Virus record (IMG/VR): IMGVR_UViG_3300025083_000025
Location: 1-60,040 of that record
Strand: one strand, 5' to 3'
Length of the DNA stretch: 60,040 nt
Source of the DNA: a virus
Taxonomy: Duplodnaviria > Caudoviricetes
In this document: positions 23,169 through 31,860 of the stretch, in pieces
Layout: each line of letters starts with the position of its first letter
How positions within the stretch are numbered: position 1 is the first letter of the stretch
Position numbers and translations under genes: made by a program
The notes under the pieces: model-generated
What the model was told of the DNA's origin: nothing
The model's input: only the letters and a program-made list of their open reading frames with translations
Database searches by the model: none

Positions 23169-26100
23169 ATGGCTGAAGTAGAAATCATAGTAATAGAAGC
23201 AGGCGGACTTGTTTTCGATATAACACTTCCTCCTCAAACAACAGCGGTAATAACTCCTGGTAGTGTTACTCAACTTGTTGGTGCCAAAGGACAAAAAGGA
23301 CAAAAGGGCCAGAAGGGTGAAATAGGCCTTAAAGGTTCTAAAGGGGAAATAGGTGTTAAGGGGGATACTGGATCAAAAGGTGAAGTAGGAGAAAAGGGTA
23401 CTACTGGTGAGAAAGGCATCACTGGAGATAAAGGTATTACTGGCGACAAAGGAGAAGTAGGTGAGAAAGGAGATAAAGGGGAAATAGGCGTTAAGGGTGA
23501 TACCGGTGAGAAAGGTATTACTGGAGACAAAGGTATTACTGGAGACAAAGGTATTACTGGTGATAAGGGTCAAAAAGGTGAGATAGGAGTCAAGGGCGAC
23601 CAAGGAGAAAAAGGAGATACTGGTGATAAAGGTATTACCGGAGATAAGGGAGAAAAAGGTATTGACGGTACTAAGGGTGATACCGGAGATAAAGGCGAGA
23701 AAGGTATTAACGGTACCAAAGGAGATACTGGTGACAAGGGAGAAAAGGGTATTGGCGGTGATAAAGGAGATACTGGAGATAAGGGTCAAAAGGGTATCGA
23801 CGGTACTAAAGGAGATACTGGAGATAAAGGTGAAAAAGGAATTGATGGTACTAAGGGAGATACGGGAGACAAGGGTACTACTGGTGACAAAGGTCAAAAG
23901 GGTGAGATAGGAGTTAAGGGTGACGAAGGAGAAAAAGGAGATAAGGGTGATACTGGCGATAAGGGTATTACCGGAGACAAGGGTATCACTGGAGACAAGG
24001 GTCAAAAAGGTGAGATAGGCATTAAAGGAGATACCGGTGATAAGGGAGAGAAGGGTATTGACGGCGATAAAGGTGATACCGGAGACAAAGGGCAAAAAGG
24101 TATTGATGGTACTAAAGGTGATGCTGGAGATAAAGGCGAGAAAGGAACTGATGGTACTAAAGGAGACAAAGGTCAGAAAGGTGTTGAGGGTTCTCAATGG
24201 ACATCAGCCGCTGGTGCACCAACCGCATCTGGTAGAAATGTAGATGACCAATACCTTAATACTACAAATGGCGATGTATACGAATGGGACGGTTCTGCTT
24301 GGCAGTTAACTGGAAACATTAATGGGCCACAGGGTGATCAAGGAGAAAAAGGAGCCACTGGGGATAAAGGTCAGAAAGGAACTACTGGCGACAAAGGTGA
24401 CACTGGTGACAAAGGAACTAAGGGTGAACTTGGAGACAAAGGAGATAGAGGTCCTAAAGGACTAAAGGGAGAAGAGGGGTCTCAGTGGACGTCATCGGGG
24501 GGTGTACCAACTGGTTCGGCAGATGAAGGAGATCAATATCTTGACACTGATAATGGTGACGTATATGAGTATAAATCAGGAGCATGGGTTAATACTGGAA
24601 ACATACAAGGTCCTGCTGGTAATAAAGGCCAAACTGGAGATAAAGGCCAAACCGGAGATAAGGGTATTACCGGAGATAAAGGTACTACAGGAGATAAAGG
24701 TACTACCGGGGATAAAGGTGAAACTGGTTCTAAAGGTGACAAAGGTCAAAAAGGTGACAAGGGTGAAAAAGGTGTTGAAGGATCTCAGTGGACATCAGCC
24801 GCTGGCACACCAACAACAGCGGGCACTAATAGGGATGATCAATACTTGGACACAAACACTGGTGAAGTTTACGAGTGGAACGGTAGTGCTTGGGTTAGCA
24901 CAGGTAATATACAAGGTCCGAAAGGAACTGCTGGTGACAAGGGAACTACCGGAGACAAGGGTGATACGGGAGAAAAAGGAACCACAGGAGACAAGGGTGA
25001 TAAAGGTCAGAAGGGTGTTGAAGGCTCTCAGTGGACGTCAGCACCAGGAGTGCCTTCAGCCTCTGGTGTAAACGCAGGTGACCAATACTTAAACACGGAT
25101 GATGGAGAGGTATATGAGTGGAGTGGTTCTGCGTGGGCTTCCACCGGTAATATTGAAGGCCCGCAGGGTACAAAAGGAGAAAAGGGACAGAAGGGTCAGA
25201 CAGGAGATAAAGGACAAAAGGGTGTCGACGGTGACAAAGGAACCAAGGGTGAAGTAGGGCAAAAAGGTCAGACTGGAGATAAGGGAACCAAGGGTGAAGT
25301 AGGACAAAAAGGTCAGACCGGAGACAAAGGTGAGAAAGGACAAAAGGGTGAGTTAGGACAAAAGGGCGCTACTGGGGACAAGGGTGATAAAGGTCAGAAA
25401 GGCGTAGAAGGTTCTCAATGGACATCAGCCGCTGGCACACCAACAACAGCGGGCACTAACAGAGATGATCAGTATCTTGATACAAACACTGGTGAAGTCT
25501 ATGAATGGAACGGTAGTGCTTGGGTTTCTACGGGTAACATTATGGGGCCTAAAGGAACTGCTGGTGATAAGGGGCAAAAAGGAGAGGTAGGACAAAAAGG
25601 TCAGACAGGAGATAAAGGAGATAAAGGACAAAAAGGGGTTGAGGGTTCTCAATGGACTTCGGCTGCTGGCGCGCCAACTACACCTGGAACCAATGTAGAT
25701 GATCAGTACCTTGATACAGATAATGGGAACGTATATGAGTGGGACGGTAGTCAGTGGCAACTTACTGGGAACATTAATGGTCCACAAGGTGCTAAGGGAG
25801 AGAAGGGTCAAAAAGGAGATACTGGTCAGAAAGGAACTACTGGAGACAAAGGTGAAAAAGGTCAGAAGGGTACCACAGGTGATAAAGGACAAAAGGGAGA
25901 AGTAGGTCAGAAGGGAACTACTGGTGATAAAGGTCAGCAGGGACAAAAGGGTGTCGAGGGTTCTCAATGGACTTCCGATGCTGGTGCGCCAACTGCATCT
26001 GGAACCAATATAGATGATCAGTACCTTGATACAGATACCGGTGATGTATATGAGTGGGACGGTAATCAGTGGCAACTTACTGGGAACATTAATGGTCCGC

Positions 26101-29610: not shown

Positions 29611-31860
29611 ATGGTCATTGTATTCCATGCAGGATATTATGCAAGTGCTTGGAACCCATATTATAACTCTGAAGGAATAGGAGGAACAGAGCAATGTATA
29701 ATGGGTTTATCAAGGTCGCTTGCTCTACAAGGCCATAGTGTTTTCGTAGTAGGTCAAGTCAAACCTGTCTCCGATAAATACCCCAACAGCGGATCCCTTA
29801 ATTATGTAGATCTAAAAAACATAAGTGAAATCCCAGATATAGATATACTAATCGGTGTATCATATATTCACTACCTAAAGTATTACAGCCTCAAGCCTAC
29901 AACTAAGAAGATATTTTGGCTACATAATGAGCATCCCCACTACTGGTACAAAGGCCAGCGTATGTCTGACGTAGATATAAAAGATGCTTATCTAAACACA
30001 GACACAATTGTTTGCCTTACCAATTGGCATAAAGAATACTTTATTAGGAATGAGGCCCCGGCTCATTTGTCAAAAGATAAAGTAAAGGTAATTGGAAACG
30101 GCCTTGACACATCGCTGTTTGAACCTGTTACCATCAAGAATAAAGATTCTTATATATACACATCTCATCCCGAACGAGGACTTGATGCAGTAATTAGTGA
30201 TATTGAAAAAGGATACCTTGATGGTACTCTCGATATATGTACACCTGGTTATGGTTTGGAGTACTACAATCAAAACTTTTCTGAGCGTGTATCTAAATTA
30301 GAAGGCGTTACTTTTCACGGTAGCCTTTCAAATAAAGAGTTGTATAAACTAATGTCTAAGTGTGAGAGTTGGTATTACCCCACTACATACAATGAAACCT
30401 ATTGTTTAACAGCGATCGAGATGTTGGGACATCATGTAAGACCTTTGGTAAATCCTATTGCTGGTCTCAAAGAAACTTTAAATAAGTTTAGCAAGCATAT
30501 AACGGATTGGTCTAAGGTTGATGAATATGTTAAGTCTCGTGACTGGAAGTTGGTAGCGAAAGAATGGGAAATTTTATTTAATAAAAAGGAAAGCCTTATG
30601 ATTCAAAAAGTCTATGTAATATCTATGGATACTTCTGACAAAAAGTTAATGGAGTATACAATAAGACTAAGGGAAGCAGGTATTGATTGCGAAGTAGTAA
30701 TAGTACCAGGTGTAGATGCAAGATCTTTTAAGGATTACAAATGGTCTCCACATGATTCATGGGCTATGGACAGTGATAATAAATGGTGGAACCAACCAGT
30801 AACAGTTGGTGAGATGGGTTGTGGTTTAGCGCATTTAAATACTTGGAAAAGAATAGTACAGGATCAAACAGAGGTTGCTTTAATATGTGAGGAAGACTTC
30901 TTCTTTAAAGGTAAAATAGATTACTCAATCATTCCTGATCCAAGCACATGGGATATGCTTTACTTAGGGCGCAGAGCAATGGCTCCAGATAGAGATGATT
31001 ACGGAGATATTGTAGTTCCTGGATACTCTTATAACTTACATGCTTATATGGTTACTCAAGCCGGTGCATTATCTTTTACTCAGCATAACTTTCAGGAGTA
31101 TATAACAGCGGCAGATGAATTTGTTCCTGCTACTTATTGTGTCCATCCACGAGGCGATTGGGATTGGGTAACAAGAGACACTCGTGCACTTGCATTAAAA
31201 GAAGACATTGCTTTTCAATCGTCTAATGATAACACAAGTAGGACTCAGTCCACTGTTCACGAAGAGATTTTTAAATCGGGTAAATGGCCTGAATGGGTAT
31301 CTAAGTGGATTCACCCCGCTGCAAAGACAAAGGCTTGGGACATGATACTTGAAGAGCCTATACAAGATGTAATATCCTTCCCGCTGTTTACTGAGGAGTT
31401 TTGTGAATTGCTTATAGATGAAGCAGAGCAGAAGGCTTTATGGCAAACTAAAAGACATGATTTTTATCCAACAGTAGATACATTAATTTCTTCATTTGGA
31501 TACGATGAAATATACAAGCGTGTTCTGGAAGATTTTGTTTTTCCGGCAGCGATAAGCAGATGGCATCTTCATGGTAAAGCCTGGGCAGAAATGGATAGTG
31601 AAAACTTTCTGATTAAGTATACTACAGATACACAGGGTCACTTAGATCTGCATCATGACAATGCTGTTATTAGTTCGGTACTAACTTTGAACAAAGACTA
31701 TACAGGGGGCGGTACATATTTTTATAATCAAAAACAAACACATGTAGGAGATGTAGGACACGTCGCTATTCATCCTGGCCAGGTTACCCACAGGCATGGC
31801 GGTAGACCAATACATAGTGGTAAGAGGTATATACTTGTGTCGTTCTGTAATAAGAAATAG
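29611..31860 (+). CDS. Tri-domain enzyme: GT4-like glycosyltransferase + GT25 (COLGALT-like) + PLOD-like lysyl hydroxylase
   Basis: GT4: GGTE, IGNGLD, YTSHPERGL, ETYCLTAIE. GT25: VPGVD, GEMGCGLAH, EED, WDMLYLGR, YSY..HAY, DEFVP. PLOD: FPLFTEEFC, PTVD, HHD, GGGTYF, HPG..TH.H, GKRYILVSF. Confidence 0.88.
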   Translation: MVIVFHAGYYASAWNPYYNSEGIGGTEQCIMGLSRSLALQGHSVFVVGQVKPVSDKYPNSGSLNYVDLKNISEIPDIDILIGVSYIHYLKYYSLKPTTKKIFWLHNEHPHYWYKGQRMSDVDIKDAYLNTDTIVCLTNWHKEYFIRNEAPAHLSKDKVKVIGNGLDTSLFEPVTIKNKDSYIYTSHPERGLDAVISDIEKGYLDGTLDICTPGYGLEYYNQNFSERVSKLEGVTFHGSLSNKELYKLMSKCESWYYPTTYNETYCLTAIEMLGHHVRPLVNPIAGLKETLNKFSKHITDWSKVDEYVKSRDWKLVAKEWEILFNKKESLMIQKVYVISMDTSDKKLMEYTIRLREAGIDCEVVIVPGVDARSFKDYKWSPHDSWAMDSDNKWWNQPVTVGEMGCGLAHLNTWKRIVQDQTEVALICEEDFFFKGKIDYSIIPDPSTWDMLYLGRRAMAPDRDDYGDIVVPGYSYNLHAYMVTQAGALSFTQHNFQEYITAADEFVPATYCVHPRGDWDWVTRDTRALALKEDIAFQSSNDNTSRTQSTVHEEIFKSGKWPEWVSKWIHPAAKTKAWDMILEEPIQDVISFPLFTEEFCELLIDEAEQKALWQTKRHDFYPTVDTLISSFGYDEIYKRVLEDFVFPAAISRWHLHGKAWAEMDSENFLIKYTTDTQGHLDLHHDNAVISSVLTLNKDYTGGGTYFYNQKQTHVGDVGHVAIHPGQVTHRHGGRPIHSGKRYILVSFCNKK

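Follow-up and report, generated by a model that had tools for sequence, protein, structure and literature searches.

The window analysed here is the whole of IMG/VR record IMGVR_UViG_3300025083_000025, a 60,040-bp stretch (CheckV completeness 100%) from a tailed, short-tailed (podovirus) marine phage, and the subject of this account is a pair of neighbouring genes within it that encode a collagen-like fibre and a three-domain enzyme composed of a GT4-type glycosyltransferase (GT), a GT25-type GT, and a lysyl hydroxylase (LH)-like 2-oxoglutarate (2OG)/Fe(II) dioxygenase (Table 1). Judged from its sequence and predicted structures, the pair probably constitutes a phage-encoded module for collagen lysine hydroxylation and O-glycosylation that acts on the phage's own fibre. 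Such a system had been proposed in an earlier note on this DNA; the underlying observation has been confirmed, and the interpretation is partly supported, with the identity of the enzyme and its linkage to collagen genes as its strong points.

The 2066-aa fibre answers to the earlier description of a Lys-dominated, Pro-poor collagen. Gly-X-Y runs six or more triplets long contain 343 triplets, of which 188 have Lys and 63 have Thr at Y, while the X position is Pro in 12 and Lys in none; over the whole protein, 251 of the 252 Lys residues are followed by Gly (225 in G-x-K-G and 26 in G-x-x-[VI]-K-G). The fibre, which also matches tail-fibre PHROGs, is nevertheless not the one continuous collagen stretch that had been supposed, given that a 37-aa N-terminal segment is followed by Gly-X-Lys-rich segments, 12 knots of ~42 aa, and a 144-aa globular C-terminus. 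Pfam returned no match for this C-terminal head, the monomer model of which has a TNF/C1q-like jelly-roll fold; Foldseek retrieved APRIL (TMt 0.80), BxpB, BclA, F-BclA, ExsFA, and a cyanophage fibre CBD (receptor-binding domain), and the modelled head is likely the trimerisation and receptor-binding tip of the fibre. The tip is also mosaic with respect to the enzyme, being 44% identical where the enzyme is 96% identical and 77-78% identical where the enzyme is 45-68% identical, as is expected of receptor-binding tips that undergo exchange.

The knots carry a W-[TE]-S motif and have no match in Pfam; knots of another kind, with the motif W...G..Y..GD.V.Y (L039:6714-9974), occur in the fibres that accompany the second of the two enzyme clades described below (clade B). 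The distal third of the stalk (residues ~1368-1905) consists of a ~17-residue repeat with a G-[AST]-S-[VI]-K-G interruption, present in 26 copies, and a G-x-S-V-K-G-Q-K-G motif is shared with the fibres of the distant relatives L024 and L059. As for the placement of the enzyme ~240 bp downstream of the collagen gene, the two genes do lie on the same strand, but the interval between them contains a conserved 64-aa open reading frame (ORF) that, to judge from its start codon, is predicted to be translationally coupled to the collagen gene. Homologues of this ORF, which has no Pfam match, occupy the same slot in L060, L052, L014, and L050.

Within the enzyme, for which the family alignment begins at the ATG at 29611 (749 aa) and for which AlphaFold gave a model with a predicted local distance difference test score (pLDDT) of 86 and a predicted template modelling score (pTM) of 0.49 (domain packing uncertain), the oxygenase domain carries every LH motif that had been listed for it, namely FPLFTEEFC, PTVD, HHD, GGGTYF, HPGQVTHRH, and GKRYILVSF. 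A phmmer search of the PDB placed this part nearest to mimivirus L230 (E 5.3e-22, ~30% identity) and human LH3 (E 1.2e-21), with no other PDB match at E up to 1, and its model superimposes on the L230 LH domain 6ax6 with a Foldseek TMt of 0.86 and a root-mean-square deviation of 2.7 Å; Pfam returned an OGFOD2-like match alone, under the cut-off (27.2 vs 31 bits). Residues Y674, H685, D687, H733, and R743 align with L230 Y814, H825, D827, H877, and R887, described as the Fe ligands (H825, D827, and H877) and the 2OG-binding residues (Y814 and R887) of that enzyme (PMC5802723), and all five are invariant in the 21 diverse relatives aligned, which extend down to 35% identity. By the phmmer alignment, a hydrophobic Val (V729) is the equivalent of L230 L873. 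Known LH domains hydroxylate the Lys of X-Lys-Gly in unfolded chains and depend on dimerisation for activity. In sequence and fold, the oxygenase domain is of the collagen lysyl-hydroxylase type, closer to LH than to other 2OG oxygenases, and Lys is its presumed target.

The GT25 domain is proposed to transfer the first sugar onto hydroxylysine (Hyl). The expected GT25 motifs were recovered as GEMGCGLAH, WDMLYLGR, YSYNLHAY, and DEFVP, with the exception of the predicted 'EDD', which reads E-E-D. This triplet (E431-E432-D433) corresponds to the E435-D436-D437 metal/uridine diphosphate (UDP) motif of COLGALT1; its outer residues, E431 and D433, do not vary among the aligned sequences, and E, D, or S occupies the middle position. 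When residues 330-560 were compared with solved structures, COLGALT1 chains were the best matches (E 1.4e-12), and mimivirus R655 and bacterial GT25 proteins reached just E 0.3. D506 and E507, invariant in 21/21 sequences, align with COLGALT1 D522 and E523, of which the former is described as the catalytic base and the latter as the anchor of the hydroxylysine epsilon-amino group (PMC12987934); the COLGALT1 residue roles used throughout for this mapping are those given in the structure papers (PMC12987934; PMC12003778). The N-terminal non-catalytic GT domain of COLGALT1 has no counterpart in the phage enzyme, in which the GT4 domain precedes GT25 instead. The domain is a member of GT25, and orthology with COLGALT is not claimed.

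The N-terminal domain passes the PF13439 cut-off narrowly, and Foldseek matched it to MshA, the alpha-1,2-glucosyltransferase tll1591, glycogen synthases, and BshA, in keeping with a GT4 of GT-B fold. E-x7-E is a motif of retaining GT4 enzymes, and the corresponding pair, E266-x7-E274, is invariant in the 21 sequences. Searches of the three domains against known enzymes have in this way borne out the predicted assignments, with the LH nearest to L230 and LH3, the GT25 nearest to COLGALT1, and a GT4 at the N-terminus.

To place this architecture among its relatives, the LH domain alone was searched in 1.84 billion representatives, which gave 2242 clusters at E up to 0.001, 596 at 1e-10, and 78 at 1e-30, and 18 relatives across the observed length range were typed by Pfam. 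Fourteen of these have the LH joined to a collagen-type GT, in the order GT25, PLOD-type GT, and LH (P0209, P0222, P0223, P0231, and P0251, L230-sized, as well as a compact 641-aa form), PLOD-type GT and LH (P0263, P0125, P0134, and P0197), PLOD-type GT, GT25, and LH (P0164), or GT25 and LH (P0127, P0144, and P0139); the other four have oxygenase-type domains only (P0146, a 252-aa stand-alone form, P0161, P0175, and P0240). PF25342 (GT_PLOD), found in P0209, P0222, P0223, and P0231, has no match in the window enzyme. The GT4 appears to stand in the place of the retaining PLOD-type GT, which would amount to displacement by an unrelated retaining transferase, and the second sugar is provisionally assigned to the GT4 because it occupies that place.

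The link between enzyme and collagen genes extends well beyond the window. Relatives of the enzyme are encoded by 334 IMG/VR stretches, 78 of which are covered by the locus counts (L015, a GT4-only match, was left out), and their enzymes form 38 clusters at 90% identity. At every locus where 2300 bp or more precede the enzyme, hereafter an informative locus (66/66), a same-strand collagen-like ORF (at least 12 triplets) lies upstream and ends 25-1707 bp before the enzyme; of the 12 loci with shorter upstream sequence, 4 show the end of a collagen ORF and the 8 that do not have just 35-1745 bp. Downstream of the enzyme, no same-strand collagen-like ORF was found in the 78 loci. Lys in the partner collagens is confined almost wholly to Y, with 0-5 at X vs up to 250 at Y. 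The arrangement is also not the property of a single lineage: 44 of the 78 loci share the window's portal (65-100% identity), whereas the portals of L017, L019, and L059 are just 27-28% identical. In a second podovirus lineage, the cassette follows the capsid gene (L017), and L042, the clade B representative, is a myovirus by its immediate downstream neighbours, which encode tail sheath, tail tube, and baseplate. In the cultured cyanophage Synechococcus phage S-8S55, a gene for a collagen-like 'tail fiber protein', in which 24 Lys stand at Y and none at X, precedes a gene for a 30%-identical GT25-oxygenase by 1.5 kb.

Between collagen and enzyme, related loci carry additional genes, among them one, present in many relatives, for a 182-187-aa DUF6445 protein (L060:9450-10010, L074:9462-10013, L020:9453-10001, and L018:9456-10001), a 111-114-aa DUF7936 protein (L048:9631-9963, L020, and L022), and a ~305-aa concanavalin/LamG-like protein (L056:8303-9214 and L017:8860-9777). 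DUF6445, which we take to be a cupin/oxygenase-like family and which is missing from this slot in the window, may represent a second fibre-modifying enzyme. In L042 (12376-16781), the enzyme is followed by a 2OG oxygenase (phrog_61), two phrog_13607 genes, and a 760-aa glycosyltransferase ahead of the tail sheath, and this is a larger modification island.

Prokaryotic genomes were searched at one genome per species (185,579 species), and just 3 of the 33 loci returned hold the GT25-LH part, the other 30 being GT4-only matches. The three are a 24-kb contig in a Flavobacteriaceae metagenome-assembled genome (MAG) bin, where two collagen ORFs precede the match, a gammaproteobacterial MAG contig, and a chromosomal gene of Streptomyces kronopolitis (L092, 8001-9823; 36% identity over residues 388-747). 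A bacterial origin for the enzyme was considered and set aside, as cellular carriers are this few.

Several findings weigh against the module as read here, the first of which concern the acceptor cleft of the GT25 domain. The Tyr of the COLGALT1 'YW' motif is kept (Y494 corresponds to Y478), but its Trp, W495, aligns with N479, a position occupied by N, C, or T in family members, and K470 of COLGALT1 aligns with a variable position; the COLGALT1 acceptor cleft, taken as the YW motif together with K470, is not reproduced in the phage enzyme. In the COLGALT1 structure papers, this Trp is described as stacking on the acceptor hydroxylysine and its replacement (W495A) as abolishing activity (PMC12987934; PMC12003778). 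The likeness to COLGALT that had been claimed for the domain is accordingly one of metal and catalytic-base residues and does not reach W495 or K470. A conserved Q-x-S...T-S-x-T stretch (~residues 540-552), of low pLDDT and outside the COLGALT1 alignment, might be a lid loop like that of S569/T571. The domain as aligned appears to be an intact inverting GT25 that retains the lysine-type amino-group anchor, with an acceptor cleft unlike that of COLGALT1.

The type of collagen also varies among relatives. In a quick maximum-likelihood tree with Shimodaira-Hasegawa-like approximate likelihood-ratio test (SH-aLRT) support (37 rows), the enzymes split into clade A (26 rows) and the deep clade B (11 rows). 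An association of the enzyme with Gly-X-Lys (GXK)-rich and not Gly-X-Pro (GXP)-rich collagens, as had been predicted, is seen in clade A, whose partners have Lys at 0.21-0.57 of Y positions, but not in clade B. The collagens paired with clade B are of the Gly-Pro-Ile/Gln type, in which Lys occupies 0.01-0.14 of Y; Pro accounts for 0.48-0.67 of X in the enzyme-proximal fibre and for up to 0.88 in one that lies further upstream. Because collagen type changes once on the tree, the tree offers no evidence of co-evolution. Catalytic residues are kept in the clade-B-like sequences of the alignment, and by this token clade B enzymes may well be active, with few X-Lys-Gly sites or with another target.

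It is conceivable, although unlikely, that the fibre is modified by a non-animal route, whether on another residue (Pro, Asn, or Asp), on Lys without a sugar, or through Thr/Ser glycans of the kind borne by the Gly-Pro-Thr repeats of Bacillus BclA. The Pro-rich, Lys-poor partners of clade B, the Thr residues at Y in the window's fibre, the hydroxylysine-stacking Trp that is not kept, the action of bacterial GT25 enzymes on lipopolysaccharide (LPS) sugars (Pfam family title), and the DUF6445 oxygenase-like genes between collagen and enzyme in relatives would all be at home with such a route; nevertheless, the only solved relatives of the oxygenase are lysyl hydroxylases, the hydroxylysine-anchoring Glu and the adjacent catalytic Asp are invariant, the LH is fused to collagen-type GTs in most sampled relatives, and Lys in the partner collagens is found almost exclusively at Y.

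The two-domain homologues present a further difficulty. This GT25-LH form (431 aa, 43% identical) is encoded amid nucleotide-sugar/replication genes, and the 8 kb around it lack a collagen ORF in 4/4 loci (records 14-39% complete), although a GXK collagen lies 14.6 kb away in 1 of 3 records; the expected linkage of homologues to collagen genes holds at all informative loci of the three-domain family, while these forms are not adjacent to such genes. Their setting, the JGI (Joint Genome Institute) name of relatives ('GR25 family glycosyltransferase involved in LPS biosynthesis'), and the other sugar-related genes of the window (GT1 and FkbM methyltransferase) could suggest that the enzyme targets host envelope glycans or another phage protein and that its collagen neighbourhood is merely co-moving cargo of the late structural module. 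We regard this as distinctly improbable, in that the order of collagen then enzyme and the shared strand persist at all 66 informative loci, on podovirus and myovirus backbones and at differing genomic positions, a constancy that would be difficult to account for if collagen and enzyme were not functionally linked. The LH, moreover, has no LPS-related relatives among solved structures.

Finally, Lys at Y is not a mark of the enzyme. In a control, records were collected with a GXK-collagen pattern scan (at least 126 stretches), and 44 viral records were searched for LH; a strong match was obtained in 1 of the 44, from the window's own lineage, weak matches to short oxygenases were obtained in 4, and no LH match was obtained in the 8 GXK-collagen records that are at least 90% complete. 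GXK collagens are thus common without the enzyme, and Lys at Y is not diagnostic of it. Lys-Gly-Asp/Glu charge pairs stabilise hydroxyproline-free triple helices, and Lys at Y followed by Asp or Glu at the next X would also fit selection for such pairs (86 of the 251 KG in the fibre are KGD or KGE). Both the plentiful KGD/KGE pairs and the enzyme-free GXK collagens might be taken to mean that the Lys pattern serves helix stabilisation only and that the enzyme is catalytically dead or a chaperone/assembly factor. Such an outcome is very improbable, as the Fe, 2OG, metal/UDP, and catalytic-base residues and the E-x7-E pair are invariant across the 21 sequences, which is the signature of selection on catalysis.

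The reading preferred here, that of a collagen lysine hydroxylation and glycosylation module, can be laid out as a sequence of steps. Late in infection, the 2066-aa fibre would be made in the host cytoplasm, and, before the triple helix winds, the C-terminal dioxygenase would hydroxylate Lys in X-Lys-Gly with Fe(II), 2OG, and O2. The GT25 domain would then add a first hexose from a UDP-sugar to the new hydroxyl by an inverting mechanism, and the N-terminal GT4, a retaining enzyme, would add a second sugar; the identity and order of these sugars are presumed. The modified chains would trimerise, probably nucleated by the TNF/C1q-like head, and the product would be a long, knotted, glycosylated fibre, presumably borne on the virion, with a swappable receptor-binding tip. 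A broader statement is put forward tentatively, at somewhat less than an even chance: that several tailed-phage lineages run the complete Hyl-glycosylation pathway in the bacterial cytoplasm with a single polypeptide, in which a GT4 replaces the PLOD-type glucosyltransferase, and thereby build a glycan brush of up to ~250 sites per chain (~750 per trimer).

The closest known counterpart is mimivirus L230, a bifunctional collagen lysyl hydroxylase/hydroxylysine glucosyltransferase of 895 aa (LH structures 6ax6 and 9nev) that is likewise virus-encoded, likewise places a GT25-like transferase ahead of a C-terminal LH, and has the same Fe/2OG residues. Its described substrates are the collagen-like proteins of mimivirus itself, which contain Lys and little Pro (PMC9614988). 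In L230-like relatives, a PLOD-type GT and an accessory domain separate GT25 from LH, whereas the phage enzyme has neither and bears an N-terminal GT4, and the L230-type architecture (GT25, PLOD-type GT/accessory, and LH) is therefore not found in it. The phage system also differs in its setting, the cytoplasm of a bacterial host, and in that the enzyme gene follows the gene of its presumed substrate. In the animal LH3/PLOD3 and COLGALT1/GLT25D1 pathway, Lys is converted to Hyl, then to Gal-Hyl, and then to Glc-Gal-Hyl; the phage and animal systems share homologous LH and GT25 catalytic domains, with the base and anchor residues kept, and the X-Lys-Gly motif, which occurs 251 times in the fibre. 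The animal enzymes, by contrast, are separate proteins, COLGALT1 bears an additional GT domain without catalytic function, and the glucosyltransferase of LH3 is a GT-A, while the phage enzyme lacks the equivalents of W495 and K470 as well as any endoplasmic reticulum or signal context. The phage module would thus act like L230 and the LH3/COLGALT1 pair yet matches neither architecture.

The Bacillus BclA exosporium collagen resembles the phage fibre in joining a collagen stalk to a C-terminal TNF/C1q-like trimeric head, and the phage fibre differs from it in being Lys-rich and in having 12 knots. BclA is glycosylated on the Thr of Gly-Pro-Thr repeats by enzymes unrelated to those of the phage. 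Mycobacteriophages, as Freeman et al. are said to have reported in 2023, use GTs that they encode to glycosylate proteins of their virions, with neither a hydroxylase nor a collagen known to be involved. Literature searches turned up no report of collagen modification by a lysyl hydroxylase of phage origin, and a search on crAss001 fibres found nothing. The relevant passages of Iyer et al. (2010; PMC2938197) predict that other bacterial dioxygenase families, not this one, modify collagen-like proteins, and the corresponding passages of four further papers attribute collagen Lys hydroxylation followed by O-glycosylation to animals and mimivirus only (PMC9614988; PMC5802723; PMC12987934; PMC12003778).

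Table 1. Positions of the fibre, the enzyme, and other features in the window
Feature	Position	Strand	Basis or remark
Collagen-like fibre, proposed substrate, 2066 aa	23169..29369	+	Pfam Collagen E 1.4e-167 in 20 stretches
Fibre knot, one copy	24198-24323	+	11 others within 23169-29369
Distal stalk third of the fibre	27270-28880	+	~17-residue repeat
C-terminal 144-aa TNF/C1q-like jelly-roll head of the fibre	28935..29366	+	AF2 (AlphaFold2) model pLDDT 86, pTM 0.79
Conserved 64-aa ORF	29369-29563	+	ATG overlaps collagen stop codon (TAATG)
Three-domain enzyme (GT4, GT25, LH)	29599-31860	+	TTG start, 753 aa
GT4-type (GT-B fold, retaining) domain, proposed second-sugar transferase	29611..30582	+	PF13439 29.8 vs 28.5 bits
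GT25 domain, proposed first-sugar transferase onto hydroxylysine	30598..31233	+	PF01755 E 2.7e-11, 44.2 vs cut-off 24 bits
Lysyl-hydroxylase-like 2OG/Fe(II) dioxygenase domain	31264..31857	+	phmmer, Foldseek
Terminase	18180-20282	+	
Portal	20318-22750	+	
132-aa ORF between portal and collagen genes	22752..23150	+	phrog_1084 match
Three small conserved ORFs (97, 82, 80 aa) after the enzyme	32022..33193	+	phrog_7595, phrog_14910 matches
Strong terminator-like hairpin, 13-bp stem and T run	33215..33244	+	pattern scan, consensus match only
phrog_13704 virion structural protein	34523-35905	+	
1686-aa virion protein with Crassvirus muzzle C-terminal domain	38389-43449	+	PF25729, E 2.5e-7
Stand-alone 2OG-Fe(II) oxygenase	16670-17233	+	PF13640, E 2.2e-7; 5' of GroES-like gene and terminase
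GT1-type glycosyltransferase	54765-55739	-	phrog_7162
FkbM-type methyltransferase	1077-1742	-	
Class I methyltransferase	12585-13190	+	

The fibre and enzyme genes belong to a ~10.5-kb block that runs from the portal to a 386-aa ORF (33342) and comprises the 132-aa ORF, the collagen gene, the 64-aa ORF, the enzyme, and three small ORFs that are kept 3' of the enzyme in 30-42 related loci; the hairpin ends the block, and the 386-aa ORF is followed by the phrog_13704 virion structural protein. The 132-aa ORF occupies its slot between portal and collagen in 43 related loci, and 44 of the 78 loci have both this ORF and a window-like portal. Pfam returned no match for this ORF, and no homologue was found in Elemovirus or MW202828; as a lead only, an Atlas feature search returned BppU-N/LtfC-like clusters, and the protein may be a fibre-anchoring adaptor.

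Searches by blastn of the terminase and portal against deposited phages gave no match. By tblastn, the terminase shares 40% identity with its counterpart in Elemovirus, a genus of ~60-kb Flavobacterium podophages, and 48% with its counterpart in an uncultured spring podovirus; in both relatives, structural-protein genes come directly after the portal and the cassette is missing, and, over the stretch compared, neither encodes anything homologous to the 132-aa ORF, collagen tip, enzyme, or 82-, 80-, and 386-aa ORFs. The PF25729 domain of the 1686-aa virion protein appears, by this match, to tie the marine podovirus lineage to the crAss-type tail architecture. Elsewhere in the window, the stand-alone oxygenase belongs to a prolyl-4-hydroxylase-type family (PF13640), and the GT1, FkbM-type, and class I methyltransferase genes could serve glycan elaboration or other ends.

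To what is known of collagen modification, the window adds a crAss-muzzle-type podovirus lineage with the cassette fixed between the portal and the 386-aa ORF, along with a 251-site X-Lys-Gly substrate, a coupled 64-aa ORF, a mosaic TNF-like tip, and the negative controls described above. The family is common (334 IMG/VR stretches), and, as a distant relative is found in the cultured cyanophage S-8S55, the idea is directly testable.

If the proposed module is real, collagen Hyl-glycosylation chemistry can run in the bacterial cytoplasm, and compact single-chain enzymes of this kind would serve to produce modified recombinant collagens in bacteria. The finding would also bear on the origin of the animal LH and GT25 enzymes, given 2242 LH clusters and many fusion architectures. 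Should the broader statement on several tailed-phage lineages hold, the pairing of LH with GT25 would belong to a viral and prokaryotic repertoire of far greater age and breadth than its use on collagen by animals and giant viruses, and phages would be a cheap source of enzymes for hydroxylated, glycosylated recombinant collagen. For the phages themselves, it would represent a new post-translational modification of the virion, with likely effects on host recognition, fibre stiffness, and protease resistance.

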